Shown here: positions 5,270 through 61,648 of the stretch, piece by piece
Position numbering within the stretch: position 1 is the first letter of the stretch
Layout of the letters: the number at the start of each line of letters is the position of its first letter
Source of the DNA: Candidatus Bathyarchaeota archaeon
GTDB lineage: Archaea > Thermoproteota > Bathyarchaeia > Bathyarchaeales > Bathycorpusculaceae
Assembly (NCBI GenBank): GCA_963826715.1
Contig: CAWGYA010000007.1
Location: forward strand, 64,001-128,000
Direction: 5' to 3'
Length of the DNA: 64,000 nt
Notes under the pieces: model-generated
The model's database searches: none
What the model was told of the DNA's origin: nothing
What the model saw: the letters and a program-made list of their open reading frames with translations, nothing else
Position numbers and translations under genes: made by a program

Positions 5270-5743
5270 CTAAGGCCTCACCAGTTTTTTAAGTGATATA
5301 TTTTCCGGTCTCGCTAGCGCCTCTTCAGGGTCGATCCAGATGCTTCCTTTTACTTGAAGAACCGCTGGGTGTCTTCTAATTTTCTCTTTTACAACTTGCA
5401 TTTCAGAAACATTTCTTAAGAAAACCCAAACAAAGATGTTGTAGGTTCCTATCGTTCCTGCAAAAAGATCTGCGCCAGGCACTTCTTTGAGGTACTCGAG
5501 GACTTCAGAAACTCGTGAAGGTATCGCTTTGATGCCCAGATTTGCAATGCAATGATAGCCAAACCGTGTTAAATCAACTTGAATTATTGATCCTGTAATT
5601 ATGCTTTTGTCTTTCAGCTTTTTAACTCGTGTACTTACGGCGTTTTTTGTGATACCTAGTTCTTTCGCATATTCCGTCAGATTTAGGCGAGCATCCATTT
5701 GTAGAGCTCTTATCAAAGCGATATCTGTTTCGTCGATCGTCAT
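5270..5743 (-). CDS. Lrp/AsnC family transcriptional regulator
   Basis: IDETDIALIRALQMDAR...YAKELG HTH plus RAM domain. Start placed at ATG 5743 rather than 5926. Confidence 0.9.
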   Translation of the reverse strand: MTIDETDIALIRALQMDARLNLTEYAKELGITKNAVSTRVKKLKDKSIITGSIIQVDLTRFGYHCIANLGIKAIPSRVSEVLEYLKEVPGADLFAGTIGTYNIFVWVFLRNVSEMQVVKEKIRRHPAVLQVKGSIWIDPEEALARPENISLKKLVRP

Positions 5744-5940
5744 TCTGAACCATAATGCCTTTGCTTTAGCGTCGTATAAATCTTTGCAACAGAAAATAGC
5801 ATCTATCTTAAAGAAAAACTTGATTTTGTGTGACATTTTCGCATAACAATTGTAATTATACGAAAATGTTAAATAAACTTCGCAGAAGAATAGAGCATGC
5901 TGGAATATCAATAAATTGTATTTCAAGCAAAAACTAAAAA

Positions 5941-39665: not shown

Positions 39666-41102
39666 TTATGTAACCTCCTTGCGGAAAAGCTCTTTAAGAT
39701 GCTCAGCAAGCAATGAGAGCTGATGATTCTGTTTCTGATCTAGAGCTTCAGTGATGTTTCCTCGGAACATTGCGTCTTTGGTGAGTATTTCTTCAGGGTT
39801 TCCGCCCCATGCCCTGATGATCTCTTTTAGTTGGTCAATGCGGTTTACTTCGGTTTTTGATCTGATTGTTATCCCAGAGGTTGCGTAGAGATTTCTCAAG
39901 GTTTCGATGCCTAAGCTTTGAACGTCTGTGTATGTGTCGATAGTGTGTCCCATCATGTATTCCACAAGTTCGGGGTCGATCTTTGCGATGCTCATTTGGC
40001 TTCGGAAGAATTTGCGTAGACTGTGAACTCTTACGCTATACATCCAGCTGTTAGGTAGTTTCTTTGCGATATTTTCGCCGACAGCAAGTTCGTGTATTAT
40101 GTCTCTAATTGCTTTTTCAGTAACGCCTAAAATCTTGTCTGCTATGCGGCAGTTACGGATAAGTGGTGATTCATCTGTTAACTGCTCGGGTGGGAAATAC
40201 CTGTTGCCTCGTCGTCTTTCATCGATGTAGCTTTTTAGCAGGCTGCAGGCTTCAGCGCCAAGGAACGTGTCGTAGTCGTGGTATTTGCCTTTGGTGATTT
40301 CTGCTTCAACATGAACGTGGATAGGGATGCGATTTGCTTCTAAGTCCTCGCGGATGTGGCGGTATTTGAGTTTTACAAAGGTTCCTATGCGGAATCCACC
40401 TGTTGATATGGCTGCGATGATAAAAGCTTCTCGGGTAGCGGAATTATCAAGCATTGTGGCTATTTCTTGAGGTTTTGGAGCTCTGTCTTTGTAGATTACT
40501 TTGCGTTTTAATGGCTCGTCGAGTTCAACTTTTTTGACGCCGTTAGCTCGGTAAAAGGTTTTTACTGCTTTAATGCGATTGCATACAGCGTTGGGTGCAA
40601 GACCTGCATCTTGGAGTTCTGCAAGATAATCGAGTAGAAAGCCGCAGTGCGCTTGGACACGCTGCTGGTCAGGTATGGCACCCGCGGGTTTAACGTCTGC
40701 TATTATTGTGTCGGGGCTGTGTCCTAGCCACTCAGCGTATTTTTTTAATTTTGTTGAGTACATTAGACAGCTTGCTTTTGAGGCTGAGCAGTGACGTAGG
40801 AAATGCCTCGCCATTCTTTGCATGCTGGGGTATTCGAAAATATAGGGAATTATGCCTGGTTGGTGCTCGATACAGCTGCGTATGATATAGTCGATGAGTC
40901 CTTTCTCTTGGGCGGCTAAAATTTTGTCGAGTTTCATGATTACTGTTTTTCGTAGACGGTAGCCGTTTAAGCTTTTTTCGATGGCAACGGTGTCCCCTTG
41001 GATTATCAGCGGTAGGTTGAGGCTTTTTAGTTCTTCGACGGAAAGTTTATGATTTCGGGTTATGGGAGAGGTTACGGTAGCTTTCGCTATAGATATGGTC
41101 AA
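39666..41102 (-). CDS. Tyrosine recombinase/integrase (different family from 38258..39553)
   Basis: TGGFRIGT, ITKGK, HSLRKFF, MMGH...Y motifs. Confidence 0.88.
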   Translation of the reverse strand: MTISIAKATVTSPITRNHKLSVEELKSLNLPLIIQGDTVAIEKSLNGYRLRKTVIMKLDKILAAQEKGLIDYIIRSCIEHQPGIIPYIFEYPSMQRMARHFLRHCSASKASCLMYSTKLKKYAEWLGHSPDTIIADVKPAGAIPDQQRVQAHCGFLLDYLAELQDAGLAPNAVCNRIKAVKTFYRANGVKKVELDEPLKRKVIYKDRAPKPQEIATMLDNSATREAFIIAAISTGGFRIGTFVKLKYRHIREDLEANRIPIHVHVEAEITKGKYHDYDTFLGAEACSLLKSYIDERRRGNRYFPPEQLTDESPLIRNCRIADKILGVTEKAIRDIIHELAVGENIAKKLPNSWMYSVRVHSLRKFFRSQMSIAKIDPELVEYMMGHTIDTYTDVQSLGIETLRNLYATSGITIRSKTEVNRIDQLKEIIRAWGGNPEEILTKDAMFRGNITEALDQKQNHQLSLLAEHLKELFRKEVT

Positions 41103-45895: not shown

Positions 45896-46363
45896 ATGAG
45901 ACGTTCACGTATCAAACAATCTCTTGAAAGCTACTACACTTGTCCTTTTCAAATAAACGTCAAAGCGCGGTTGCGTTCAAAGACAGGAAAGTTTTTTTGC
46001 GCCGTAAAACAAAAGGGTTCAATTCATGCAAATAAGGAATGGAGCGAATTTAAAAGCAAACACGAGTGCGAATGTGGTATTTTAACCGATGAACAATTAA
46101 ATGAACAACTAAAAATTGCAATTAAAAACTGCGGTATCATACAAACATTAGTCAAAGCATTCGAGAACAGAGAATACGAGATAATTCACAATTTTTTCAA
46201 GGAGATAACAGATTATCAAGAATGGCAAACTTTTGTTGTTTACACAACAGGAATCGGTTGGAGTCGCTGGGAAATGCACATTGGTACCTGGCTCTTGAGG
46301 GAATGCCGATCAGACCCCCAATCTCCTTTCAAAGCAATGCTCCCTGAATCCAACCGTGAATAA
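45896..46363 (+). CDS. Hypothetical Cys-containing protein
   Basis: 155 aa ORF; no recognised family. Confidence 0.55.
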   Translation: MRRSRIKQSLESYYTCPFQINVKARLRSKTGKFFCAVKQKGSIHANKEWSEFKSKHECECGILTDEQLNEQLKIAIKNCGIIQTLVKAFENREYEIIHNFFKEITDYQEWQTFVVYTTGIGWSRWEMHIGTWLLRECRSDPQSPFKAMLPESNRE

Positions 46364-46417: not shown

Positions 46418-47554
46418 TTATTGTGGTTGGCCCCAATTACGCTTTAAATACTCAGCCATTTCAAAGCCTTCTAAAAGCCTCTTTCTATTTCCATCCCTTG
46501 TCCAAAGGTCTCGAATTTCTCTGCCACCTATCTTATCTTTGAAAAACGTCGGTACGCTTGACTTTTGGATTTGAACAATACATACAATTTCGTCATCTAT
46601 AGGTTCAAAGCTAATTGTAATTAGTCCAGGTATGTAAGGTTGGATATTTTCGATTATGATATTTTTTAGATGGTTTTCAAATCCATCTCTGTTTCTGTTC
46701 TTTGGCTCAGTAAAAGTCTTAAAGTCATTTTTAATACCCAGGACTTTCTTACTTTCGTTCTCGACTCCAATTATCAACCTTCCTCCTTCACTGTTCAGAA
46801 AAGCGCATATTTCCTGGATTGCTGCTTTCTCCAATTTAGGATCACCTATTTCAATACCTTTTTTGGCGGCTTCATAATTATATCTCAAACTAGCTTTGAA
46901 TTCAAGGCATTGTCCTTCATCTTTTAGCAAAAAATTTTTGAGGTTTGAGTTTGCTTGCTGTGGTTGATTATTTAAAATTGGCTTAAGTATTTCCTCCATG
47001 AATTCATGTTGAGCATTAGAAAATTCAAGTGAGAGAAATTCTGGAGAATAATCTGCCAATTCTAGCTTTACAAGGTCGCTGCTCGTAAGCCTGTGTAAGA
47101 AAGAAGATGTTCCGCTTTCTCTTTCATCGGATTTGTTGATATAGAAAGGTATTAGGACATTTCTGTAATAATCTTCGTCTAGTAATTTTTTTATAAAGGC
47201 ATAAAGGTCTTCTCGATACTTTACGTTTTCTTCGCAGGAGTCTGGAAAACCATTCTTTTTGACCCATAGGCAGAAAAGCAAATGATTTATCAGATCGTCA
47301 AATTCTCCGATCTCAACACTAAAGTCCTTCTTTTCAGAAAATATTTTTATCTCGTCAACCATGGGAGGCAGCTCCCGTGATTTATAGAGCCCAAAAAATG
47401 TGCAAATTAGAACAGGGTCAATCTTTCTTTTGAATTCGGATATATTCGCTAGAGATTTCTCTTGTATCCCTTGTTCATCTGCTTCAATTGGTGGAATTCC
47501 TCTTATTATTTGTTTAAGATTTTCTGGAATCTGGATATTTCCTTTAAGCTTCAT
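46418..47554 (-). CDS. PbeD-position protein fused to a C-terminal Schlafen/AlbA_2 domain
   Basis: Last gene of the pbe-like operon. C-terminal EGQCLEFKASL...ICAFLNSEGGRLIIGV...G...R.GN is the AlbA_2 signature. Confidence 0.8.
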   Translation of the reverse strand: MKLKGNIQIPENLKQIIRGIPPIEADEQGIQEKSLANISEFKRKIDPVLICTFFGLYKSRELPPMVDEIKIFSEKKDFSVEIGEFDDLINHLLFCLWVKKNGFPDSCEENVKYREDLYAFIKKLLDEDYYRNVLIPFYINKSDERESGTSSFLHRLTSSDLVKLELADYSPEFLSLEFSNAQHEFMEEILKPILNNQPQQANSNLKNFLLKDEGQCLEFKASLRYNYEAAKKGIEIGDPKLEKAAIQEICAFLNSEGGRLIIGVENESKKVLGIKNDFKTFTEPKNRNRDGFENHLKNIIIENIQPYIPGLITISFEPIDDEIVCIVQIQKSSVPTFFKDKIGGREIRDLWTRDGNRKRLLEGFEMAEYLKRNWGQPQ

Positions 47555-49433
47555 TGAGTACCGCCTCTTCGTTTACTATTTGCGTTGGATTAGATGATAT
47601 AAAAGGCCCAAAATCAGCGATTTCAGTAGGCAAGCAAAGGAGTATAATTTGTTGATGATTTGCAACTAAGTGTCTTGCTAGTTTTTCTCTGTGACTACCA
47701 ACGTTTCCTGATGGTGTATCGACGATTATTGGGTCTATTAGCGTTAAAGCTTCGGCAAAACAATAGGATAGAATGAGACGACCTGAATAGCCACCTCTTT
47801 CACGCCCATAGTGACCATCTTCACCTAATACAAGTCCTTCTTCGACGGAGAGCCTTGCAGAAAACTTTGCTCCCAAAATTGATGAAACCCCTTCTGAAAT
47901 GACTCCACTGATTATATCAATAGTTTTAGATTTTATTGTTTCACCGGCAGCCTCGACTTTGCTTATGGATTCATCAATTCTATCAATGATAACTTTATTT
48001 TCCTTTAACGTTGAGTTTTTGCTTTGCAACTCTGCAACTTGCTGTTTCAGATCTGATATCCAAGAATTACGTTCATTTAGTTTGCTTAGCAAATTGGCAT
48101 TGTTTGTAATAATCAAGGCAATGTCCTTTTGTATTAGTTCTCTTTCAGTGAAAAGTTGGTTATCCTCTGTGGTGAGTTTTATATTATTTATTTGGTTTTG
48201 GATTCTCTTGCATTCATCAATCAGGTTCTTGATTTCCTTGTATTCTTTCTCGGTATCGAGCACATTGGTTCTCGGATCAAGTGTTTTTTGTAAAAATGTA
48301 TGCACATCTGGATCGGCAATTACAGATTCTAATGCCAATATGTGTTGTCTCGAGAATTCATCCAATAATCTTCCACAGATTTCGCATTTTCCAGATGATA
48401 GACAATTTGAGATTAAATTCTTTCTAAAAGGTTCAGGTAGATTTCCTTTTTCTCGTACTTGAGTCTTAAGCTGATTAATTAATTCAATATCGGCACTATA
48501 CCATTGTGAAGCAAAGGCATAGATAGCGGAGCGTTTACGTGCAATTTCAGCAGTTTTGGTTTTCAAGTCGTCGTCAAATCGTAGTTTTTGAACAATTTCG
48601 TCTGCCTTAGCCTGAGTTATCTTGTTTTCAAGCTCAATAAAACGTTCCTGTTGGCTCTTTAGTGCTAACGAATTGGCAGCCATGTCAACCTTAATTGAAT
48701 TCGTTTCTTTCTCAAGCTGACGCAAATCTTCAATCGCAGTTCTTAGACGCCCGATTAATATTTCTAGTGCCTTATCGGATACTTTTGCATTAGCTTCTTC
48801 CAGAAGTCTATTTTTTAATCCGTTAAGCTTTTCTTTATATTCCTCAATTCGGGGGTGAGTTGCCCTTTGGTTTACAAGGAATAATAAGTCACCTACCTTT
48901 TCAGAATTTGAAGAAAGCTGCATTAATTCACGTGCTTTTTCTCCATCGAAACAGAAAAAGTCTGCACATTCTTTGAACCGCAATTCATCTTTCAGAAAAT
49001 CGAAAACTGCGTCCCCTGTTAACACATTTTTCCCTTGGTCTATCTCTAAGGTATCGTAAACCTCCCTGATTATATCGGAGTTTGGTTTATGCTCTAGATC
49101 AGAAATTCCATCAATAGATCGTGTAAATTGGTAAAGATGCTCTTTCCCTTTTTCGTCAAATGCGGAAAATCGGATTAGTATCTCGCAATGTTGAGGGCCA
49201 TTTTTGGATTCGTCAAGAACATAAGCGTGAGTAAACCATGTGTGACTAAAATTATCGACACATTGACTTTGGGGATATTTAAAGCACCACCTCATTAGTT
49301 CGATGGTAGTCGTTTTCCCTGTATTACCGTCCATAACAAAAATAGTGTGCTGACCTCGCGGATTCATTTTTAGAGTAAAGTATCTCCCACGATAGCCAGA
49401 TACTTTTATTAGCAAAAAATGAATGTTCCTCAT
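47544..49433 (-). CDS. pbeC: SMC/Rad50-like ATPase, PbeC-like
   Basis: GNTGKTT, FCFDGEK, long coiled-coil, CEICG hook, IIVDTP. Confidence 0.75.
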   Translation of the reverse strand: MRNIHFLLIKVSGYRGRYFTLKMNPRGQHTIFVMDGNTGKTTTIELMRWCFKYPQSQCVDNFSHTWFTHAYVLDESKNGPQHCEILIRFSAFDEKGKEHLYQFTRSIDGISDLEHKPNSDIIREVYDTLEIDQGKNVLTGDAVFDFLKDELRFKECADFFCFDGEKARELMQLSSNSEKVGDLLFLVNQRATHPRIEEYKEKLNGLKNRLLEEANAKVSDKALEILIGRLRTAIEDLRQLEKETNSIKVDMAANSLALKSQQERFIELENKITQAKADEIVQKLRFDDDLKTKTAEIARKRSAIYAFASQWYSADIELINQLKTQVREKGNLPEPFRKNLISNCLSSGKCEICGRLLDEFSRQHILALESVIADPDVHTFLQKTLDPRTNVLDTEKEYKEIKNLIDECKRIQNQINNIKLTTEDNQLFTERELIQKDIALIITNNANLLSKLNERNSWISDLKQQVAELQSKNSTLKENKVIIDRIDESISKVEAAGETIKSKTIDIISGVISEGVSSILGAKFSARLSVEEGLVLGEDGHYGRERGGYSGRLILSYCFAEALTLIDPIIVDTPSGNVGSHREKLARHLVANHQQIILLCLPTEIADFGPFISSNPTQIVNEEAVLNEA

Positions 49434-49624
49434 TTTTTATTCCCCTTTAGCAAACGTTTGATTTCCTCTAATGATATAGAATCAATTTTGTTTTGACGAA
49501 CTAATTTTAGAAGAATGTCATCACCAGCTTCAGCAAGAAGTTTGTCAAATTCAGCATTCATTACTTCTTCAATCCTGCTTTGAATAGCAATTTGTTTTTT
49601 ATCATTATCTACTCTTTTGGTCAC
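49430..49624 (-). CDS. pbeB: Small protein, PbeB-like
   Basis: 64 aa gene between the helicase and the ATPase, overlapping both. Confidence 0.55.
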   Translation of the reverse strand: MTKRVDNDKKQIAIQSRIEEVMNAEFDKLLAEAGDDILLKLVRQNKIDSISLEEIKRLLKGNKK

Positions 49625-51386
49625 TCAAATCACCTGATATTTGATCAATAGATAATAGTGTTTCATAGCGTTCTCTTTCTAAAAGTAAGGGCTCGCCATT
49701 TGTTTCGCAAAAAACTACGTCTATTATTTCAGCTATTGTGTGAGGGCTTTTTTGATCAAAACGTAACGCACGACCGATTTTTTGTATCCAGTCTCTTTCA
49801 GATTTATCCGAGCCATGAAGGATAACTTTATCAACCTTTGGCAGATCGAACCCCTCTGAGAGCATTTTTTCTGAAATTAAGCAATAACCTACGTTCTTTT
49901 TAAATTGATTGAAGGCATAGGTTTTGTGATCTTCACTTTTTGAGGAATCGTAAACATATGTTGACGCTTCGGGGTTCCATCCGGGTTGCTTAGTTATAAA
50001 ATCCCTCAGATGCTCCGCAATCTCGTTTGTTTGCACAAAAATAATTGAAGCTTTATCTGAAAAACCATCGATATGAGAAGTAATATAATTTTGCAGAACT
50101 CTAACGCCACCCGGTAAGCTTCTTAGCCATCTAGCACGCTTAATAGCTGCTGTCGGTTCATTAGCTCCTCCCAAGGTAGATTTACCGATTTGAATAGCTA
50201 CATTTTTGCTAAGGCTTTTGAATTCATCCATTTCTGCGAGAGTCAAATTATACTTTAAAGGGATGTATCTTAGCGGTTTTAATACTGCAGTGGAATTTAG
50301 CCTATTCCAATAGGAGTAAAAACGCTGCAACGAAATTTCGAAACGATTGTTATTTCCATCCATGAAATTAACGAAGTTTTTTACTTCATCTTCCCTGAAT
50401 GAATCGATGGTCGCTGAAAGACCAAGTCTATACGTTTGGTTTCCAAAAGATTGAATTAAACTACTAAATTCACTTAAATTATCTATATGACCATAGGAAT
50501 TATGGCACTCATCTAAAATTAGTAATAAGGAGGGCTTTAAAATTTTTGCTCGCTTATAATACTCGCGATATTGATCAAAAAATCTACTATATAATGTCAC
50601 TAAAACTCGATGGCTTGGATCTGCGAAGTAAGATCCCAAGTTGTTTAAATCCGTACCCCATTCTAAATTTGGTATGTTCGCTTGGTCTAAAAGTCTTCTC
50701 CATTGATTTAAGAGCGTAATTGTCGGAACTATCACTATAGAAGTCATATTCGAATCTTTACCAAAAAGGTATTGTAGGTATGTAAAAGCAATCTTAGTCT
50801 TGCCTGTACCGGGCGGGATGTTTACGATCGAACTGGTTTTATCTTCTAACCAAGCTAAAACCTCAAGTTGGTGTTTCCACAGAGAAGAGAGTAATTTAGG
50901 ATCAAATTTCGAATATGCGGTCGTCGTTATTGGTGACTTTTTAATAGGCAGATCGGTATTTGGGATCAAGCTAAGATCGGCATAAATTTGAGGAACATTA
51001 TCCCAAATTGTTTTGCAATTGGAAGTTAAATAAAAGAGTGACTCGAAATTCAAGTTCGAATATTCAGAAAGATTGGGAGAACCAACCGCTAAAAATTTTA
51101 TTTCCCCTTCTTTTTTAAACAAGAATAATTTAGCATGAATTAATGTTAGATTTTCTGGAATAGTAAAAAATGCAAGTTTCTTTAGTTTCATGAGATTAAC
51201 TAATTCTTCTGAGTGTTCTGTTGAATAGGTAATTTTTTCAGCATTTGACCAAATAGCAATTCTTTTCAGCGAAGGGTATTCTTTAAAAAGCCTTAAAACA
51301 AGATCGAGACTGACATTATACGCCATGCATTCAAGCTCGTCGCACTTTTCGATGTCCAAGCCTTTGGATAGCATTCGTTGAAGCAC
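49605..51386 (-). CDS. pbeA: PLD-nuclease plus SF2 helicase, PbeA-like
   Basis: HAK...GSPN PLD motif; PPGTGKT, DECH, SAT, EGFDLP, QKIGRALR helicase motifs. Confidence 0.8.
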   Translation of the reverse strand: MLQRMLSKGLDIEKCDELECMAYNVSLDLVLRLFKEYPSLKRIAIWSNAEKITYSTEHSEELVNLMKLKKLAFFTIPENLTLIHAKLFLFKKEGEIKFLAVGSPNLSEYSNLNFESLFYLTSNCKTIWDNVPQIYADLSLIPNTDLPIKKSPITTTAYSKFDPKLLSSLWKHQLEVLAWLEDKTSSIVNIPPGTGKTKIAFTYLQYLFGKDSNMTSIVIVPTITLLNQWRRLLDQANIPNLEWGTDLNNLGSYFADPSHRVLVTLYSRFFDQYREYYKRAKILKPSLLLILDECHNSYGHIDNLSEFSSLIQSFGNQTYRLGLSATIDSFREDEVKNFVNFMDGNNNRFEISLQRFYSYWNRLNSTAVLKPLRYIPLKYNLTLAEMDEFKSLSKNVAIQIGKSTLGGANEPTAAIKRARWLRSLPGGVRVLQNYITSHIDGFSDKASIIFVQTNEIAEHLRDFITKQPGWNPEASTYVYDSSKSEDHKTYAFNQFKKNVGYCLISEKMLSEGFDLPKVDKVILHGSDKSERDWIQKIGRALRFDQKSPHTIAEIIDVVFCETNGEPLLLERERYETLLSIDQISGDLSDQKSR

Positions 51387-51542: not shown

Positions 51543-52712
51543 CTAGATTTTAAGCGAGGAATTTAACATATTCAGTTTCTGAACATTTTGAATAATTAAT
51601 TTCGAAGCAAATTCTATCTCTTCCTGTGTGTTATATCTCCCTAGCCCTAATCTGATAGTTGTATACGCCCTTTCTTCTCCAAATCCTAAAGCAAGGATAA
51701 CATGTGAAGGCTTAACCCTAAGAGTTGTACAGGCAGATCCCGTAGAAATTGCCAGTTTATTATTCACTGAATTAATTAATGCCTTATTTTCAACGCCGCT
51801 AAATGAGATGTTGATATTATGAGCTAGCCGCTGAGTTGGATGTCCATTTAGCTTGACAAGGTTGCATTCAGTTTCAAAGTTCTCTATTAGAAATTTCGAC
51901 CATTTACAATATTGTAAATTTTCCATATCCATTAGTTCAACTGCTCTTTTTAATGCTGACGCCAACCCTACAATTCCTGGGACATTAAGTGTTCCAGAAC
52001 GTATCCCTTTCTCATGTCCGCCCCCAAATATAATTGGCAGAGGTTTGGCTGCCCAATTGCTGTTTCGTACATACAATGCACCAATACCTTTAGGTCCATA
52101 AATTTTATGTCCAGAAATGGAGGCTAGGTCTATGTTGTTAGCGTTTACATCAAACACTATGTGTCCTACCGCTTGTGAAGCATCTGTATGAAAGGGTATA
52201 CCGTGTTTACGCGCGATAAAACCAATCTCTTTTAAAGGTGCTATTGTGCCGATTTCATTATTCGCGGTCATAACACTAATTAGGGCAGTTCTTTTAGTGA
52301 TAGCTTGTTCGAGTGCTGGTAGATCAACAATACCGTGGTTATCAACTGGAATATATGTTACTTTTTTACCTATACTTTCTAAATATCTGCATGTATCAAG
52401 AATAGATTTGTGCTCTGTGACGCAAGTTATTAGATGGTTTTTCTCCGGATCCTTTTGAGATATGCCTTGCAATACAATATTATTTGATTCCGTTGCTCCA
52501 CTTGTAAAAATTATGTTCTCTGGTTTAGCATTTATGCATTGAGCAATTTGTTTTCTTGCTTTTTGGACGGCCTCGAATGCGTCAATTCCATATTGATGGT
52601 CGATACTTGAAGCATTACCAAATTTTTCAGTAAAATAGGGTAACATTTCTTCAAGAACTCTGGGATCAACGGGTGTAGTTGCGTGGGAATCTAGATAAAT
52701 TGGGAAGTTCAA
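51543..52712 (-). CDS. dndA: Cysteine desulfurase DndA/IscS
   Basis: YLDSHATTP, HTDASQ, SGHKIYGPKG, GSACT; located in the dnd operon. Confidence 0.93.
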   Translation of the reverse strand: MNFPIYLDSHATTPVDPRVLEEMLPYFTEKFGNASSIDHQYGIDAFEAVQKARKQIAQCINAKPENIIFTSGATESNNIVLQGISQKDPEKNHLITCVTEHKSILDTCRYLESIGKKVTYIPVDNHGIVDLPALEQAITKRTALISVMTANNEIGTIAPLKEIGFIARKHGIPFHTDASQAVGHIVFDVNANNIDLASISGHKIYGPKGIGALYVRNSNWAAKPLPIIFGGGHEKGIRSGTLNVPGIVGLASALKRAVELMDMENLQYCKWSKFLIENFETECNLVKLNGHPTQRLAHNINISFSGVENKALINSVNNKLAISTGSACTTLRVKPSHVILALGFGEERAYTTIRLGLGRYNTQEEIEFASKLIIQNVQKLNMLNSSLKI

Positions 52713-53083
52713 GCGGTTTTCTCCTTAGGAAGTAAATCCCGAAAGTCTTGGATAGTCTTTACTCGGTCGAACAATACATTTGCGCCCCGATTCATATGTG
52801 CTCTAAATTGTGGAAAGAAATCCTGATCTAGATCTAAATTGTCCTTTAACATACGCTCTTTTAGCAAAGCAACAAAAAGCTTGTCCCATTCACCAATTAA
52901 GGTATACCGGTTTATTTCTTGCCCATCTTCGTCATAGTTAGCCGGGTTAGGGACAACAGGATCGCTAAGTGATAGACAGAATCCGATCCTACAAAGTATA
53001 TTGGGTGTTAAACCCGTTCGCCCTTTTAGCATAGATAACCGAGCGGTTGCTGATTTGCTTAATCTGAGTCTATAGAAACTCAC
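52709..53083 (-). CDS. dndE: DNA sulfur modification protein DndE
   Basis: L..LKGRTGLTPNILCRIGFCLSL. Confidence 0.92.
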   Translation of the reverse strand: MSFYRLRLSKSATARLSMLKGRTGLTPNILCRIGFCLSLSDPVVPNPANYDEDGQEINRYTLIGEWDKLFVALLKERMLKDNLDLDQDFFPQFRAHMNRGANVLFDRVKTIQDFRDLLPKEKTA

Positions 53084-55107
53084 TGTTGTGCCTCCGTATT
53101 TTTCCAGAAGTATCCTTCTCTAACGGTAGTTTTGCCCATTGGGGGATTGTATTCTAAGCTATACGCTTTTGAAATGTTAGGATACAGCAAATTGAAATAT
53201 GGTTGGTCTACTTCGGTATTAGTGGAAAAGATTATTATTTGATGGGAGGCATTCGCGAGAAAATTCTTTAGGACATTTCTCCTATGATCTATGTCAAGTC
53301 TTCCTAATGGCGTATCTATCATAAATGGTAGCTGTCTGCCAGAAGTTTTGGCAAGGGCCCAAATCATTGCCATTGCATAAATCTGCCGTTCTCCTGCGGA
53401 GAGCTCGCTTTTTGGAAGGGGATCGCCATGAGGTGTGAATAGCGTGATGTTAAAGTTTGTTATTGAAACAGTTGCATTACCAATCAAGTTGTCTTTTCCA
53501 ATTAGAAGGTTAAAACATTCAAGAAAGTTATCTTTAAACGCAGTTATTTTTTCGTTTCTTGTTTCCTGCAAATAATCTTCTATTACTTTTTGCGCTTTTA
53601 TCCCAAGTTGGATTTTTCTATTATGTTTGTCAAATTGGGTTTTTTCTTCCAGAAGCTTTTCTTGCTCATCTATGCTGATTTTTAGCTGTTTAGCGTTTGC
53701 TTCAATTACTTTTTCTATGTTTGCTTGGTTTTGTAATTCTCTTCCAAGTTCTTCATGCAGTTCGCCCAGCTTTATGAAATATGGTTTTAGTAGTTCATCG
53801 GAGGGGGCATTGGAAATATATCCATTGATTGTTTTTGCTTCAGATTCCAAGAATATTAACGAAGAGGTAAGTTCCTCTAACTTAAACGGCGCCCTACTTA
53901 ATGCGGTTTCAATCCATCGCAGGAGGTCACGTCTTTCAAGTGATGATATAGCGTGGATACTCTCTTTTGGACTACCATTCATTTGTTGTAGCCTATTTCT
54001 TAGAGTTTTAATTGCCTCACTCGCGACAAGTTCTTTCTCATCTTTTGATAATTTTAGGGCATCAAGAAATAGAGCATTGCTTATATCCTTCGTTAGGTCA
54101 TTTGCTGCCAAATTGAGGTAAGCAAGGGCTGCCTGCCTTTGTTGGACTTTTTCTTCATTCTTAAGTCGATTCTTAAGGGTAAGGCATAATTGAGGGGTAA
54201 ATGTAAAAGGAAGTAATTCGGCACATAAAGTGCGGATTTGTTCTTTTATCGTCTCAATTTTCCCCTCAAGTTCTTTTGCCTTTTGTTTATACTCTTCTCT
54301 TTGAGATGCAAAGCCTCCGCCAGCGGTAGAAATTGCTTGCTCTTGGCTTTCAATTTCAATGTTAATTCGAGAAATCTTGTTTTGGAGGTTGGCTTTGGTT
54401 TGTAGAAAAGAGTCTATTTCTGTTTCGATTATTTTTCTTTGTTTCTGAACCTCGAAAAGTTTACGTTCAAATTTTTCAGGGTCTCCCGCTGATTCTTTGG
54501 CTATGAATGTTTTAACGTCATATCTAAGGTCTTCAATCAGATCTAAACCTAATAGTGAGTTAATTGAGCCAATAATATGTTGATTTTCACCTTGACCACG
54601 AGATAGACTCTGGATTTTTTCACCATCAAATAAGAATAGCTTAGAAAGACCTGGCGGAATGAGCTCTATTAGGAAGTTCTGCCATTGTTCTTCATCTGCT
54701 TCTTTTAGAGCTTCATTGTTTTGAATAACAGCAAGTGTTTCTATAAGCAGGGTACCATTGTAGTTCCAAGTTCTTGTTACTTTGTAATTGTCGATCACGC
54801 CCAGCTTAGGATAGTCAAAGGTTAATGTTATTGAAGTCGTTGTCGCTTTGGTTCCATCAGGATTTCTATGGATACGAGCAACAATATGCTTATTGTATAA
54901 TGATTTTGGCATTTTTTGGCCTTTAAATGCATCACCATATAGACAAATTTTGAAGGCTTCAAGCAGAGTTGTTTTTCCACTACCATTTTTTCCGCCAAAA
55001 ATGATGATGGGTTGGCATCCATCGGATGATTTTTTGGGCATAAGATCAAAGGTTTGTTCTTCAGAAAATACGCCGAAATTTGCTATTTGAAGACTTTTGA
55101 ACCTTAT
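53080..55107 (-). CDS. dndD: DNA sulfur modification ATPase DndD (conserved N-terminus starts at ATA 55107)
   Basis: NFGVF, GGKNGSGKTT, LFLFDGEKI, LSAGERQ, IDTPLGRLD..HR. Confidence 0.92.
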   Translation of the reverse strand: MRFKSLQIANFGVFSEEQTFDLMPKKSSDGCQPIIIFGGKNGSGKTTLLEAFKICLYGDAFKGQKMPKSLYNKHIVARIHRNPDGTKATTTSITLTFDYPKLGVIDNYKVTRTWNYNGTLLIETLAVIQNNEALKEADEEQWQNFLIELIPPGLSKLFLFDGEKIQSLSRGQGENQHIIGSINSLLGLDLIEDLRYDVKTFIAKESAGDPEKFERKLFEVQKQRKIIETEIDSFLQTKANLQNKISRINIEIESQEQAISTAGGGFASQREEYKQKAKELEGKIETIKEQIRTLCAELLPFTFTPQLCLTLKNRLKNEEKVQQRQAALAYLNLAANDLTKDISNALFLDALKLSKDEKELVASEAIKTLRNRLQQMNGSPKESIHAISSLERRDLLRWIETALSRAPFKLEELTSSLIFLESEAKTINGYISNAPSDELLKPYFIKLGELHEELGRELQNQANIEKVIEANAKQLKISIDEQEKLLEEKTQFDKHNRKIQLGIKAQKVIEDYLQETRNEKITAFKDNFLECFNLLIGKDNLIGNATVSITNFNITLFTPHGDPLPKSELSAGERQIYAMAMIWALAKTSGRQLPFMIDTPLGRLDIDHRRNVLKNFLANASHQIIIFSTNTEVDQPYFNLLYPNISKAYSLEYNPPMGKTTVREGYFWKNTEAQQ

Positions 55108-56538
55108 GCTGATTCCTCCAATCTCAAGCTTTCAGATCTCTTCTTTTCAAGAAGTACCTCTTCTTCGCTTCGCCATTCTGCCGAAAATACTTGGTTTATT
55201 TTCTTGTGAATTGATGCTCTTCGGGTCATTCCTTTTGATTGAATAGCTGCATCCAGTAGTTTCATAACCAGTCTTAGCGGAACGTCATTTTTTATACATA
55301 TTTCCTGTAACCTAATCTTATCTTTTAATGAGAACCCAATGTCGTCATGTATCCACTCAAGTTCTTTACCGGTTATTTCTTGGTATATTTTTGGCACTGA
55401 GTCTTCCCAATCGCTCTCTTTGGAGAGCCATAAGCGTCTGATTTCGAAAAGTTCCTTATGTGAGACTAAACATACGCTATGTTTCGAGTTATCTATGCAG
55501 ATTTGAGCCTTGAGTAAGGTGGCTAAAAGCTGTTTGCGGAAGTCAAGGGTATAGGGACCTCTTGTAATAGTCCCTGAACCATCAGATTTAAACCACACTC
55601 TACCATCCTTTCGTTTATAATCTCTATAAATATGCTTATTCCAAGGATCTTGTGTTTTAACTAGAAGATCATGTATGTCTAGCAGCGGTTGCAACCATGT
55701 TTCTCCTGCATCAATGAGAGCACTTAATGATTTGTCCTCGTTGACTAAGGTACAGACCCAGCATCCGAATCGGCTATTGCCGCAGGTAGGTGTTGTTTCA
55801 TCGACGACTAAGGGGCACTCTCCTTGCGCAGTTTTGTATAATGCGACGAGGTCTCGATTTTCGTTCCCCCATGGTGATGGAACTTGGAGGAGATATGACC
55901 AAACATCATTTACGCTCCATTCCTTGATTGGTGTATAGACGAATGCGCCTGAGAAGGTTGAATGCCTTGACAAGAGACTATTGGGTATCTCATAGAGACT
56001 AATTACTTGAGCACGTGTCGCACTCTCTTGGCGACGCACACCTAAAATTAATACTACTTCGCCATGTTTTGAAAGATGTTCGGTTATGAATCTATTTGAG
56101 GGGTTTATTTTTAGACGTTCTGTGCACCATCTAAATCTCTGTGATGGAGCTGGGTATCCTTTTCCAAGTAAATTAACCCAAAAGCTATCAGCTATAACCG
56201 GTTTCAATCTATGAGTTATTATGGGTAAATTAAGCTCTTTTGCTTTAGTAGCTACTCTATTGAGACTATTATTAACTATATCTACCATGACAGGTGTTTC
56301 AACTAAAGTGTCTGTAGCAATTACATGGATTGGTTTGCTTCGTTTTTCAGGTGGCAATTCAGAAATGGCATAAAAGATTAATTGGAGAACAAGTTGTGGA
56401 GTCTTTACCTCCACTATAACCTAACACCCAAGGCCGCTGATCTGAGTGATAGACTTGTTGGATTTCTGTATAGATATCCCGCAGACTACGTTTATCAAAT
56501 ATAGACGGTTCTACTGTTTGATCACTATTTTCAGCCAT
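55104..56538 (-). pseudogene. dndC: DndC (PAPS-reductase-like), split by a one-base frameshift near 56391-56396
   Basis: ATG 56538 frame gives PWVLGYSGGKDST and then stops. The remainder (DTLVETP, FRWCTERLKI, SRFGCWVCT) lies in another frame. Confidence 0.88.
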
Positions 56539-56540
56539 GT

Positions 56541-57692
56541 TTAGTTACCTCGACTTTCCTCTGCGAAATCTTGCTCTAAGGTTTGTTCAGCTTCGCTTAA
56601 GCTTAAACATAAGATCTTCTTGATTGCTATAGAGACAAGCGCCGTATTTTTTGTAGACGCAGTAATAGTACCCGAATTAATAATGCGTCCTGCCCATAAA
56701 CCGTTGGATCTAGACCAATCGACTTTTTCTAAGAGGCTCAACCGCTCTCGCCAATCATGAGGATGCTCATCAAGTAAGGTTTTTCCAGAAATACCTAGAG
56801 CCTGAAGCATAATACCATGAACGTCAACATAGTTTTTCCTGAGTTCACTTGCTGGAGCCTTCCCCGCCTTGACAAGCAACCAGTGCTCCATGTGTTTTGA
56901 AACCTCTGTCCAATATTGGATGGCTTTAGTTTCGTCTTTTTCAGCAATGCGACCAAAATTTTGCCCTATACCTAATAAGTACCTAGTGGCTTGGTAAAGA
57001 CTACTGAGTGTAAACAGTTTTAGGGACCTGTTAGATATTGAGCTTTTTTCAAATTCTATTTTGTCAACGAATACTGGGACTAAATCAGCGATCTTTTTGG
57101 TCAAACGAGATAGAGATTCCCTATGATTGTAAAGAATTGAAAGAGACATTGTGGGTCGCAGAGCGTGTTTATTTAGATCAGAGAACATTTGCTGACTCCT
57201 TTTTAAGCCACCGTCAACAAAGAAAACAACAGATATATGCTCTGAACCTAATTGGGGCATTTGCTTTAACGCTTCCTCAATCGCGGCTTTTCTATGTTGA
57301 CCATCATTTATCAAAAATCTTGCAGATTGAGGAATTATCAAGTGACCTACCTTGCTAGCAGCACCACTTTTACTAAAGGGAACAAATTCAACGCGACAGT
57401 CGACTGAAGCCGTAATAGAAGAGAAGACATAGTTTTTTGGGTCCTCGAGAATATAGCGGCTGATGGCCGGAATCCTTGAGCGATTCAATTGTCGTTGCGC
57501 CCTATTAGTCGAAGGTAACTCTTTTTCATCAAACAAAAACAATTTAGGAATGAAACTGAGCTGGACCATTACTGAATAGTATTCTCGACCAGCTTGTATT
57601 CCCCTTAGGGCCATAAAAGTGTAATTATTAGATTCACAAGATTCAACGCTACCCAATAGATCATTTATTTGCCCCTCAGTCATTCGCTTCAC
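56541..57692 (-). CDS. dndB: DndB (DGQHR domain regulator)
   Basis: RGIQAGREYY, RAQR.LN..RIP, INDGQHR, QQMFSDLN. Confidence 0.93.
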   Translation of the reverse strand: MKRMTEGQINDLLGSVESCESNNYTFMALRGIQAGREYYSVMVQLSFIPKLFLFDEKELPSTNRAQRQLNRSRIPAISRYILEDPKNYVFSSITASVDCRVEFVPFSKSGAASKVGHLIIPQSARFLINDGQHRKAAIEEALKQMPQLGSEHISVVFFVDGGLKRSQQMFSDLNKHALRPTMSLSILYNHRESLSRLTKKIADLVPVFVDKIEFEKSSISNRSLKLFTLSSLYQATRYLLGIGQNFGRIAEKDETKAIQYWTEVSKHMEHWLLVKAGKAPASELRKNYVDVHGIMLQALGISGKTLLDEHPHDWRERLSLLEKVDWSRSNGLWAGRIINSGTITASTKNTALVSIAIKKILCLSLSEAEQTLEQDFAEESRGN

Positions 57693-57868: not shown

Positions 57869-58588
57869 TTGAACAATCTTTTTGAGCGTTTTGTGCATTT
57901 CCAGACTGCCGTAGACAGGCTTGAATTGACATGTGAGAAAAATAAAAGAGTTTATGCAGAAAGTCACAAGTTAAATATAATTAACTTCAACCGAATTATT
58001 GAAGTTAGAGACTTAAAAATAGTGCAAAATAACATGTTTGACACAGCGAAGTCGTCGGCAGCGGAATCCCCGCTCAATAAAGAGTTAACTTACGCTAAGA
58101 AGACAATAAAAGCCCTGGAATTGATGGACCCTCAACTATCAGACAATGCATGCATTGTTCACGGAAAAAAACATGCCTGGATACGGATTAAGACCTGCCT
58201 AAAAAAGACGAATTTCTATCTATTTATGGAAAATGGTGCAATTTGCGTTGACTTATATATTGGCGGCAGGGGCAAAAAAGAAGCTAACCAATTAGTTTTC
58301 GACCGATTCTTTGCAAGAAAAACTGAGATTGAAAGTTTGTTTGATAAACCGATTTCTTGGGTAAGAAAACATCCGAAGTCTTCGCAGGCATCCAGAATCA
58401 TTATCCGAAACACCGATTTTCTGGATAACGATTTTTCAAACTCCAAACAAGCATTAACCTGGGCAGTAGACAACCTCATAAAGCTATACCAAGCTCTCTC
58501 ACCACAGTTATGTGAGATTCTTGAAAAGTATAACCAGGTGAAAAAGCAATCAAATCCTCTCCAAAGAAATAAAATAAAAGAGACCTAA
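57869..58588 (+). CDS. DUF4268-like domain protein (true start probably near 58034)
   Basis: V.LYI......N...FD.......EIE..F...ISW........ASRI pattern; divergent from dndB. Confidence 0.6.
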   Translation: MNNLFERFVHFQTAVDRLELTCEKNKRVYAESHKLNIINFNRIIEVRDLKIVQNNMFDTAKSSAAESPLNKELTYAKKTIKALELMDPQLSDNACIVHGKKHAWIRIKTCLKKTNFYLFMENGAICVDLYIGGRGKKEANQLVFDRFFARKTEIESLFDKPISWVRKHPKSSQASRIIIRNTDFLDNDFSNSKQALTWAVDNLIKLYQALSPQLCEILEKYNQVKKQSNPLQRNKIKET

Positions 58589-58743: not shown

Positions 58744-60192
58744 TTAGGTTGTTTGTCTACACCAAAACAGGTAAACTTTTGTTTGAGATAGCATTGCAAG
58801 AATCTTAATCAATCTGCCAATTTTCAAGTTATCCGCAGTTTGCATGGATGCCAGATATTCGGATGTTTTTCCATATGGGTTGTGTCGGCTAGGCGCCACT
58901 TCTTTTTTAAAGCGTGGATGTTTGCTTGCCATGAAGGCTGTTTTGAGTTCTCTTATTTGTTGCTCAGTTAAGTTTTCGAGTTTTGATTGTACATAGCGCT
59001 GGCTGCCAATAAGCTGTAAGTTAAACCCAAGGTGTTGCAGTGTATTAGTAATTCCCTTAAATCCTTCAACAGATTGCTGTTCCATAACCTTTCGCATTCC
59101 TGCCTTCTCTGCAAAAGGCGAATATTTTGCCATTACAGCAATCAACTCAACGTATGGGGTGCCAGCTTGGGGTAGTGTATCACGGATTATTTTCTCTCCA
59201 AGACCTATTGTCCGGTATTTGGGGTGGATTACAATACGGTTTATGGTACTGAGTTTCTGGTTTATTTCTGCCATTGTCATCCTTGGAAGCACAAGACGTC
59301 TTCCATAGCAGGCAGGAGGGGGATAAGTATAGACTATTACACCACAGAGCTCATCACCCCTGGCCATTCTGAAGATTTTTCGGGGAACAGAGACTCCGTG
59401 TCCTCGATAGTGGAAAGCGCTTAGTTTTTTCCAGTCTTCTTTTGTTCCCTGCTCTATTTTCATTTCCTTGGTTAAGCTGCATTCAGGCGCTGGGTTGTTT
59501 GGGTAATAGTTAATTCTGATTTCTTCGCCAAACCTTTTGTTGACAAGTACGCTGGGTTTTAGGTCATCTTGTAAGTCGCTATGGGTTGTGGCTGCTATAA
59601 CGGCTTTACCCTGCTGGCGGGCAAGCTTTTGTAAGTTGTAAGCAATTATTTTTGCGGTGTCTCGATCTAGGCAGGCAGCGAACTCATCCATCAACCACCA
59701 GTGCCGCTGCTTACCAGATTCGATGAGTTTTGCGATTCTGTAACGGTACTTTTGGCCGTCGCTGAGTTGACTGTAGGTACGTAGGAAGAGGAAAGCGTCG
59801 TTTAAGCCCACTTTGCTAAGAAGCTCCAATCCTTGCTCAACTGTGGCACCTACGGTTTCAATTAACGGTTTCTCTGGATCTACTTCAACATCTGATAGAT
59901 CGATGGCTTCTTCGCCAAGGTCAGCCCTTATTGCTCGTAGCAAGACGCTTTTGCCGCTGCCGCTGTCCCCTGTGATGTAGACGATGTCTTGTGGTCCAAT
60001 CTTTAGTTCCGCATCCAACACCTTGAACTTCTGCGTCTCATCGATTCCTAACCCGAAGGCTTCAGCTACAACAAGACTTCTTGGCGTGGGCTTGGTATGT
60101 GTTTCATAGCTGATGTTAAACGTGAACTTGCCTTCAGCCCTATCGTAGACTCGTCGGAATTGCGTTATGCGTAAGTCTCTTTGTCTTCTCAT
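58744..60192 (-). CDS. Fused ABC ATPase-GNAT protein
   Basis: GDSGSGKS, LSDGQ, MDEF, TTH, then FHY and INRIVIHPKYRTIGLG. Confidence 0.88.
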   Translation of the reverse strand: MRRQRDLRITQFRRVYDRAEGKFTFNISYETHTKPTPRSLVVAEAFGLGIDETQKFKVLDAELKIGPQDIVYITGDSGSGKSVLLRAIRADLGEEAIDLSDVEVDPEKPLIETVGATVEQGLELLSKVGLNDAFLFLRTYSQLSDGQKYRYRIAKLIESGKQRHWWLMDEFAACLDRDTAKIIAYNLQKLARQQGKAVIAATTHSDLQDDLKPSVLVNKRFGEEIRINYYPNNPAPECSLTKEMKIEQGTKEDWKKLSAFHYRGHGVSVPRKIFRMARGDELCGVIVYTYPPPACYGRRLVLPRMTMAEINQKLSTINRIVIHPKYRTIGLGEKIIRDTLPQAGTPYVELIAVMAKYSPFAEKAGMRKVMEQQSVEGFKGITNTLQHLGFNLQLIGSQRYVQSKLENLTEQQIRELKTAFMASKHPRFKKEVAPSRHNPYGKTSEYLASMQTADNLKIGRLIKILAMLSQTKVYLFWCRQTT

Positions 60193-60199
60193 TCCATCG

Positions 60200-61648
60200 T
60201 TACCTCGGGATTACTGCTAAGAACGGTTCAGGCTCCATTTGGACTGTGGCAAACACGGCTAGCGCTATGCTCCAAAAAACGTCGTCATGCGTTCCGTTTG
60301 GGTGCGAGTATCCTATAGCGCCATCTTTGCGCAAGTCATAACGCTCAACGTTTAGTTCTGTGCATATGTCGCCTCGGTATGGGCGTTCCCAATTCAGCAG
60401 TGGATAGACGAACTGTTTGTTCATCATACGCTGCTTAAGCAGGCTTGCCATCTCGCTTTTTCGGGGCACACTAAAGTTTACTCCTTCAGCGTTTTCTATT
60501 CCTGCATTTTGCATATCGGCAATAATGGACGGTCCTTCCCGGGTGAAGTCAATTCGTATCTTTTGGAATCCACCCCACCGATCCTGCAACGCCTTCAAAT
60601 AACCAAGAACCTGAGCATACAATGTCGGCTGCTGAAAAATCTTCAAATGCCTAAGAAACAGCCTATCATTTAGTCGCTCAATAACCGAGAGGACGCAGTA
60701 ATCTCTTGTTTGCGCTAAGTCAAGCCCCGCGAAGAAATCGCCCTCAAATGTCGCCTCAGGATTGAACTCTTGCAGGTCCTCGCCACAGTTTTTGGTTGTA
60801 CCAATGCAGCTGACAATAAGTGACTGGGCAAGCCAGGTGTCTTCATCCTCCGCCCACTCAGCCTCCATTTCCCGACGCCAACGCTGCGGATCATCCCCAA
60901 ACTGCCGCTTAATCTTCTCCACAATCGCCAACTTAAGCGGACCATCAGGCTCCAACGCATCACTCCAACGCACATGCGAGCGGGCAAAATCCTGGTAGTC
61001 TTTGTGGTTACACATCTTCCAAAACAACGAATCAGAATTCCAAGGCGTAGACGTCGCAATCAACTTACCATTAGTAGTACCCAAAGTAAACAAAATAGCA
61101 TCATAGAGTTCCTCATCGTTAGGCACGAAATTAGCTTCTTCAATCCAGATCACTTTGAAGGTGGGACCTCTGATGGTGTCGGGATTGTTTGGGAAAGCTT
61201 CAATCATGCTCCCGTTTGGCAAACTAATCCTTGTCTTCTGCACATGCAAGCCTGGCTGCTGGGGAAGCTTTCGACAAAAACCACCCATACGCCTTATGTT
61301 TAATTTAGTTTGACGCCAGCTAGGCCCCACAATCGCAATGTAACTGTCGGGATGCTCCCAAGCATACTTGAGAAGCAAAGCAGAAACCGAAAAACTCTTC
61401 CCCGTCTGACGCGACCAACGCACAGCAGTAAACTGGTTACTCTCAAACATGTCCGCAAGCTCCAGCTGATAGCGATAGGGTGCAAAACCGAAAACCTGCT
61501 TACAAAACCCACTAAAGTCATTTTGTAACGCTTCTACTTGAGTCTGCTTTTTAGCCTCATGAGCCGTTGCCAACTGCTGGACACGTTCCATTTTGGCTTT
61601 AGCTTGGTTTATCCTCAGTGTCCGAGGGTTTTTTCTCCAAAGAACCAT
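60200..61648 (-). CDS. terL: Terminase large subunit
   Basis: YQ, SRQTGKS, IWIEEA, STP, GLDLA...D, HDD motifs. Confidence 0.9.
   Translation of the reverse strand: MVLWRKNPRTLRINQAKAKMERVQQLATAHEAKKQTQVEALQNDFSGFCKQVFGFAPYRYQLELADMFESNQFTAVRWSRQTGKSFSVSALLLKYAWEHPDSYIAIVGPSWRQTKLNIRRMGGFCRKLPQQPGLHVQKTRISLPNGSMIEAFPNNPDTIRGPTFKVIWIEEANFVPNDEELYDAILFTLGTTNGKLIATSTPWNSDSLFWKMCNHKDYQDFARSHVRWSDALEPDGPLKLAIVEKIKRQFGDDPQRWRREMEAEWAEDEDTWLAQSLIVSCIGTTKNCGEDLQEFNPEATFEGDFFAGLDLAQTRDYCVLSVIERLNDRLFLRHLKIFQQPTLYAQVLGYLKALQDRWGGFQKIRIDFTREGPSIIADMQNAGIENAEGVNFSVPRKSEMASLLKQRMMNKQFVYPLLNWERPYRGDICTELNVERYDLRKDGAIGYSHPNGTHDDVFWSIALAVFATVQMEPEPFLAVIPR

Follow-up and report, generated by a model that had tools for sequence, protein, structure and literature searches.

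The window described here, a 64,000-nucleotide (nt) stretch of the genome of a Candidatus Bathyarchaeota archaeon (class Bathyarchaeia; GenBank assembly GCA_963826715.1, contig CAWGYA010000007.1, positions 64,001 to 128,000), carries a phosphorothioate (PT)-linked dnd-pbe gene cluster. The last gene of its dndBCDEA-pbeA-(pbeB)-pbeC operon, hereafter the target, is an open reading frame (ORF) of 378 amino acids (aa) at 46418-47554 on the minus strand. Its ATG start lies inside the end of pbeC (...GCT TAA) and the two genes share 11 nt (47544-47554). The encoded protein consists of an N-terminal domain, a linker that begins with QPQQ (residues 197-200) and a C-terminal Schlafen/AlbA_2 domain (Table 1). 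This layout suggests that a small DNA-reading subunit has been joined to a Schlafen-type RNA-cutting domain, and that sensing of unmarked DNA may thereby be wired to translation shutdown.

The initial annotation, made from the sequence alone, had noted the ORF, the QPQQ linker, the overlap with pbeC and an AlbA_2 domain with an E...EFK motif, and all of these are present. It had also called this a PbeD-position gene, a reading that would be weakened if the gene were not conserved beside pbeC. That conservation is found: pbeC lies directly upstream in all 21 related loci that encode the N-terminal domain (6/6 from genomes and 15/15 from metagenomes). It should be added that L020 is the same contig as L006 and that L012, L014, L017 and L018 hold only the 3' end of pbeC, at a contig end. 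In most loci the pbeC stop falls between 11 nt inside and a few nt before the start of the downstream gene. Full-length relatives of the target share 38-88% identity with it, those with names being from Bathyarchaeia. With such relatives in a conserved position, a chance ORF is ruled out; that the fusion arose from a frameshift or an assembly artefact is likewise ruled out, since it recurs in 9 loci and in many database proteins. The gene is rare: the N-terminal domain occurs in 2 of 401 genomes sampled from the class (counting G000, the genome of the window), and a sample of 40 other genomes of the genus has it once.

The gene order resembles that of the DndCDEA-PbeABCD system of Haloterrigena jeotgali A29, in which pbeA, a small pbeB, pbeC and pbeD are described as following right after the dnd genes (Xiong et al. 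2019, PMC6459918). Here, dndB, dndC, dndD, dndE and dndA lie directly upstream of the pbe cassette on the same strand, PbeA pairs a phospholipase D (PLD)/HKD-like region with a superfamily 2 (SF2) helicase, and PbeC is an ATP-binding cassette (ABC) ATPase that bears a coiled coil and a zinc hook. Gene order and three of the four parts identify this as a Pbe/CxC-DndE system. As judged from profile matches, the Dnd assignments are strong and the Pbe assignments weaker.

There are also differences. The PbeD described for H. jeotgali A29 has 152 aa and no extra domain (PMC6459918), whereas the target has 378 aa and a Schlafen domain. Unlike canonical Pbe, the cluster gives no PADLOC match for PbeD or PbeB, its PbeC matches weakly, and the zinc hook carries C-x-x-C rather than C-V-C. 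This hook reads C-x5-C-E-I-C in the window protein and its relatives, with C344, C350 and C353 invariant, whereas the canonical PbeC encoded beside a PADLOC-positive PbeD (G460, L026 2-1450) has C-V-C.

Table 1. Features of the target gene, of the dnd-pbe cluster and of neighbouring genes in the window
Feature	Position	Strand	Evidence or description
PbeD-type N-terminal domain of target	46967..47554	-	Residues 1-196; two strand-helix-helix units and C-terminal helices in the model; AlphaFold2 (AF2) predicted local distance difference test (pLDDT) 89-94
Linker of target	46919..46966	-	Residues 197-212, QPQQANSNLKNFLLKD; pLDDT falls to 81-85
Schlafen/AlbA_2 domain of target	46421..46918	-	Residues 213-378; Pfam PF04326 8.5e-17
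Putative catalytic motif Ex4ExK of target	46895..46918	-	E213, E218, K220; EGQCLEFK at 213-220
pbeC, ABC ATPase; has a coiled-coil insert and a zinc hook (C344, C350-x-x-C353)	47544..49433	-	PADLOC PbeC 2.2e-16; invariant cysteines in alignment
64-aa ORF at pbeB position	49430..49624	-	Position; conserved in related loci
pbeA, N-terminal PLD/HKD-like region (HAK...GSPN) and SF2 helicase	49605..51386	-	PADLOC PbeA 5.6e-45; ResIII 6e-17; Helicase_C 7.5e-14
dndA/IscS-like cysteine desulfurase	51543..52712	-	PADLOC DndA 1.5e-153; Pfam Aminotran_5 9.5e-82
dndE, clade-1 type, 124 aa	52709..53083	-	Pfam DndE 4.9e-27; TIGR03184 1.4e-26, above cut-off
dndD, ABC ATPase with coiled coil	53080..55041	-	TIGR03185 9.3e-137, above cut-off; PADLOC DndD 1.8e-190
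dndC	55104..56414	-	PADLOC DndC 6.5e-170
dndB	56541..57692	-	PADLOC DndB 1.7e-144
Phage-integrase-family protein	39666-41102	-	PF00589 8.4e-8
155-aa ORF	45896-46363	+	No Pfam, NCBIfam or PADLOC family match
DUF4268 protein	57869-58588	+	PADLOC candidate PDC-S11, 2.5e-16
482-aa ABC/AAA ATPase	58744-60192	-	Weak mad3 and mad8 matches
Terminase large subunit	60200-61648	-	Terminase_6N 9.6e-16

The Schlafen domain and its alternatives

The match of the C-terminal domain to Pfam SLFN_AlbA_2 (PF04326) spans residues 213-360 and scores 62.2 bits against a cut-off of 25.3. Foldseek retrieves DIP2311, SLFN13, SLFN5, SLFN14, SLFN11, SLFN12 and the tRNase domain of SAMD9 with this domain, at a probability of 1.00 and E of 6e-5 to 1e-3, and phmmer aligns its GGxLxIGV stretch with the C-lobe of SLFN13. 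The motif Ex4ExK, defined as in PMC13056530 and PMC13462974, is kept in 30/30 AlbA_2-fused relatives, down to about 30% identity; this set combines 23 proteins from databases with 7 translated from the loci, and some genes occur in both. The presence of a clear AlbA_2 domain with the E...EFK motif, as first annotated, is upheld. By Pfam score and motif, the domain is a member of the prokaryotic Schlafen nucleases.

Two characterized members of this group provide a frame for its putative function. In RorSlfn5, mutation of Ex4(E/D)xK is reported to abolish both defence and tRNA cleavage (PMC13056530). In CbCash, the triad E17, D22 and K24 is described as holding Mg2+ at the scissile phosphate, and activation as involving the alignment of Schlafen domains in a filament (PMC13462974). 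For proteins of this type, tRNA cleavage is said to lead to growth arrest (PMC13056530, PMC13462974). Like RorSlfn5 and CbCash, as presented in these articles, the target has a single-lobe Schlafen/AlbA_2 domain with the Ex4(E/D)xK triad, fused to a sensor or adaptor. Unlike them, its fusion partner is a subunit of a multi-protein DNA-modification system and not an Ig-like, HisKinase, helix-turn-helix (HTH) or Csx15 sensor.

The N-terminal domain is not always attached to AlbA_2. An exhaustive search of representatives returned 3824 proteins at E <= 0.001, mostly via the AlbA_2 half; among the 150 matches listed, 34 cover the N-terminal 200 residues. The relatives of the N-terminal domain come in three forms: some stand alone (183-216 aa), some are joined to AlbA_2, and others, of 322-362 aa, have a HEPN C-terminal half (HEPN_Swt1 down to 3.4e-12; PADLOC PDC-M34B down to 1.4e-24). 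The PDC-M34B model was considered as a match to the N-terminal domain itself and rejected, as it falls on the HEPN halves only. Altogether, 8 relatives bear a HEPN_Swt1-like or PDC-M34B-like domain in place of AlbA_2, with R-x4-H in 7/8. P0098 (286 aa) is the HEPN-type relative that lacks R-x4-H; of the 192 positions of the PDC-M34B model, only about 65-138 are matched in it. This replacement of AlbA_2 by a HEPN RNase supports, at the level of domain assignments, the reading of the C-terminal domain as an effector.

The initial annotation had proposed a Pbe variant with an RNase effector, and a survey of related loci finds fusions to AlbA_2 in the family to which the target belongs. Among the 21 related loci, 9 encode the AlbA_2 fusion, 11 a standalone protein (190-212 aa) and 1 is cut by a contig end. 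The canonical PbeD family, on the other hand, shows no longer, fused forms among 7994 candidates, which is weak evidence. In a maximum-likelihood tree of 55 N-terminal domains (22 with AlbA_2, 8 with HEPN, 25 alone), the relatives of which are not independent observations, the AlbA_2 label changes 7 times, at least 4 of these changes being forced by well-supported branches, and the HEPN label 4 times, at least 3 being forced. This indicates that RNase modules have been repeatedly gained, lost or exchanged on one scaffold. Scans of genomes, metagenomes and viruses did not recover the HEPN-fused relatives, and a search of 401 genomes of the phylum of G742 with one of them, P0023, gave only HEPN-only matches besides G742 itself; no claim draws on G1087, an unpublished genome among these.

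Just 3' of the gene in five standalone loci, no obvious separate RNase gene is seen among the ORF heads that were read, without a scan. Two of the standalone genes have the following neighbours on their 3' side. In L015, a 224-aa ORF (5362-6036, +) has the stretch DVFAGSGTS in its head, a putative methyltransferase motif I. L021 has two ORFs there (6511-7502, +), of 161 and 169 aa, that contain CxxC.

The genome of the window has a second AlbA_2 protein, in a 415-aa open frame (G000:C2:513669-514079, minus strand, locus L027; PF04326 4.0e-18), at a position unrelated to the dnd-pbe locus.

Predicted fold and partner of the N-terminal domain

The N-terminal ~195 aa define a separate family, for which Pfam, NCBIfam and PADLOC give no match, either with the target or with standalone relatives. 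A profile search of the PDB with this domain gives 0 matches at E up to 10. In the ESM Atlas the best scores are 0.76, and one cluster has 11% of members with PF27807 (DNA_S_mod_dnd_assoc_4), which is a lead only. AF2 predicts the full-length target with a pLDDT of 93.7 and the N-terminal domain alone with 89.4. In the model, the order strand-helix-helix occurs twice (2-8/11-18/45-59 and 75-81/83-101/107-124) and is followed by three more helices. The "helical region" of about 200 aa in the first description does exist, but it is predicted to be alpha+beta, with strands at 2-8 and 75-81 and about 8 helices up to residue 195.

A VIA wide fold search of 48,161 chains ranks DndE first and second and an F relaxosome chain third. 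The top three matches are of the duplicated ribbon-helix-helix (RHH) type and cover nearly whole chains, although the match is modest. Two strand-helix-helix units plus a C-terminal helix in one chain, which characterize the DndE family, are present in the model; the gene lies next to that of an ABC ATPase, and binding to PbeC is predicted. By sequence, no link of the domain to PbeD or DndE is found. It is a DndE-like double ribbon-helix-helix by predicted fold and PbeD by position after pbeC. The earlier identification of this half as PbeD is accordingly half sustained: fold and position agree with it, but sequence homology to PbeD or DndE is not detected.

These properties recall the systems of CxC-clade ABC ATPases with clade-2 DndE proteins, for which scanning of DNA by the ABC ATPase-DndE pair in a two-plus-two arrangement is proposed (Rakesh, Aravind, Krishnan 2024, PMC10853773). 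As depicted there, the DndE partner has two RHH units, long loops and a long C-terminal helix, and the systems, which include an HKD-SF2 helicase as well as a small protein that evolves fast, are found in tandem with a DndD-DndE modification system. Their neighbourhoods also contain HEPN and PIN endoRNases as suicide effectors. However, these RNases are described as standalone proteins at locus boundaries and not as DndE fusions (PMC10853773).

Complex prediction supports docking of the N-terminal domain on PbeC. With an alignment of 14 sequences for PbeC and of 23 for the N-terminal domain, the pair reaches an interaction prediction score from aligned errors (ipSAE) of 0.73, against 0.07 for the best of 3 controls. 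The docking mark is reached by 58/80 solved complexes and by 2/110 mismatched pairs, a calibration that is only rough here given the use of our own alignments. Contacts agree between runs by at least 88% and the pLDDT of the partner is at least 78. Because neither PbeC nor the N-terminal domain has a solved relative by sequence, the result is unlikely to be recall of a known complex. On the PbeC side, the predicted interface comprises residues 294-332 and 371-409, which are the coiled-coil arms flanking the hook cysteines. On the side of the N-terminal domain, it comprises residues 37-53, 84-125 and 162-194, among them S170-P171-E172, which is invariant in the family; neither of the two beta strands figures in the confident interface. 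The prediction supports a model in which the N-terminal domain binds, by its conserved helices and S170-P171-E172, the PbeC coiled coil beside the zinc hook.

A proposed tethered RNase: models and rivals

PbeABCD of H. jeotgali A29 is reported to discriminate self from non-self in a PT-dependent manner that needs pbeB, pbeC and pbeD; it is described as sparing PT-modified virus and as halting viral DNA replication, with no viral DNA degradation seen in the experiments presented (PMC6459918). Within this framework, the target is probably the PbeD (clade-2 DndE-like) subunit of a PT-linked Pbe module (dndBCDEA-pbeABCD) that carries a swappable Schlafen RNase, a view in which we infer the RNase activity, its substrate and its trigger. 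The PbeC-PbeD pair would scan DNA and tell PT-marked self from unmarked invader, as published for PbeABCD. In the clade of the target, this recognition, or a disturbance of the complex, would also release or assemble the tethered RNase. Dimerisation of the PbeC hook would probably bring two single-lobe Schlafen domains together on unmarked DNA. The RNase, held on its 16-residue linker, would then cleave RNA, probably tRNA, leading to a stop of translation and to growth arrest, and would act beside the PbeA helicase-PLD nuclease or behind it. Its trigger may be either recognition itself or failure of the system.

A number of observations count against this proposal. Neither the N-terminal domain nor its standalone relatives match Pfam DndE PF08870, NCBIfam TIGR03184 or PADLOC PbeD, and the sole PADLOC PbeD model (PDLC02758) has no match in the genome at E up to 10. 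The kinship that profile comparison of the N-terminal half could have revealed does not emerge, as hhalign gives a probability of 0.3% with the DndE of the window and of 0.2% with a 24-sequence family around the canonical 150-aa PbeD (G460). Foldseek with the model of the domain finds nothing at E up to 0.001. In the C-terminal domain, the residue after GGxLxIGV, which aligns with an acidic pair in mammalian SLFNs, is variable (EN, ED, KD, SD and others; E265-N266 in the target), so that a conserved third acidic residue cannot be claimed. Finally, canonical Pbe works without any RNase.

A more specific version, which we consider tentative, assumes that PbeB, PbeC and PbeD make up a general chassis for reading a mark on the DNA backbone, whose output can be exchanged. 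Here, an RNase of the Schlafen or HEPN type, mounted on the DNA-reading subunit where the ABC ATPase's coiled coil has its apex, would be switched on as zinc-hook dimerisation on unmarked DNA brings two RNase domains together, resulting in tRNA cleavage. If true, an epigenetic DNA check would lead directly to tRNA cleavage and translation arrest, combining the logic of restriction-modification with an abortive-infection output, and the target would be the first Schlafen nuclease under a DNA-scanning machine like SMC (structural maintenance of chromosomes) complexes. The whole system would work like PARIS AriA-AriB and P2 OLD, where an ABC ATPase serving as sensor and a tRNA-cleaving nuclease are described as bringing about abortive infection. 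The effectors of PARIS and OLD, however, are Toprim proteins and their sensors are reported to detect phage proteins or DNA defects, not a backbone mark; no homology of effectors is claimed.

The rival that survives best, although we regard it as unlikely, holds that the RNase is a backup suicide effector, set off once a viral inhibitor or the loss of the small PbeB-like protein disables the Pbe complex, and not upon PT-based recognition. Such a role has been proposed for endoRNases at Dnd loci, with the PbeB-like small protein as a negative regulator (PMC10853773), and the same is said of HEPN, PIN and Schlafen proteins in BREX (PMC12839542). That the RNase has been gained and lost repeatedly while the rest of the system is complete fits such an optional add-on. 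Yet the RNase is covalently joined to a core subunit and is not at the locus edge, and its predicted placement in the hook region of PbeC points to a direct coupling with the scanning complex.

We deem it improbable that AlbA_2 is a non-catalytic module that extends the DNA or RNA binding of PbeD (for instance in sensing viral nucleic acid) without being an effector. Solved relatives do include DNA-bound or nuclease-dead forms (e.g. 7ksp and the SAMD9 domain with DNA), some mammalian SLFNs are stated to lack catalytic residues (PMC13462974), and the position after GGxLxIGV is not conserved as acidic. But the triad is kept in every fused relative, even at the lowest identities, and the alternative C-terminal module is HEPN, mostly with R-x4-H, which fits interchangeable RNases rather than binding domains. 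It is most improbable that the N-terminal half is an unrelated adaptor that replaced PbeD after pbeC, its DndE-like fold being a chance resemblance of a small alpha+beta domain, given that the three best of all chains searched are of one duplicated-RHH type with nearly whole-chain coverage, that the strand-helix-helix order is duplicated in the model, that a position next to an ABC ATPase is described as the defining one for clade-2 DndE, and that PbeC binding is predicted via C-terminal helices, as anticipated for such proteins (PMC10853773).

The reading of the target as PbeD with a swappable RNase has several implications. A PbeD with an intact RNase triad, and with a HEPN alternative in relatives, offers a handle on how PbeABCD stops viruses. 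For the prokaryotic Schlafen defence nucleases, established only recently, it adds a context that is multi-subunit and linked to DNA modification. Moreover, this ~195-aa PbeD-type family is missed by current Pfam, NCBIfam and PADLOC models, and such loci would therefore be called incomplete by defence finders that require PbeD. In the library searched, we found no paper naming DndE together with Schlafen, and none that joins Schlafen and phosphorothioate, as here, by title or abstract, although supplements, which were outside the scope, may list the architecture. The main texts of PMC13056530 and PMC13462974 contain no mention of Dnd, Pbe or phosphorothio-, and that of PMC10853773 none of Schlafen or AlbA.

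Other genes of the cluster and its surroundings

The PLD part of PbeA matches weakly (RE_NgoFVII PLD, 0.0056), and the protein scores 84.8 bits (6e-24) with TIGR04095, far under the cut-off of 600. The Walker A motif of PbeC is GNTGKTT. The 64-aa ORF at the pbeB position gives no PADLOC PbeB match. An ORF with 45-94% identity to it occupies the corresponding place in 14/15 loci that reach this position (including L001-L005, L009-L011, L013, L015, L016, L021 and L022); it is not found in L023, and L020 (= L006) is without that region.

Two PADLOC results concern the models themselves. Residues 375-408 of DndC match the PbeB model PDLC02708 at 2.4e-5, and the PbeC models score the DndD of the window (1.5e-162) far above its PbeC. 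Some PADLOC models that carry the PbeC label seem to derive from DndD-like proteins, and PbeC calls made automatically with them need care.

The GC content drops from about 0.44-0.46 at 38-41.5 kb to 0.35-0.38 across 45-55 kb, being about 0.36 within the cluster. The phage-integrase-family protein flanks the dnd-pbe cluster and the terminase lies on its other side, and the defence locus may be located within or next to an integrated element, viral or mobile. The window has no tRNA gene. The integrase and terminase are not found in the flanks of related loci, and hence are not part of the conserved unit.

The 155-aa ORF is convergent with the target. It is kept in place and orientation in L001, L002, L003 and L009 (47-70% identity) and is absent from more distant loci. 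Next to dndB lie the DUF4268 protein and the 482-aa ATPase, which may be further defence genes.

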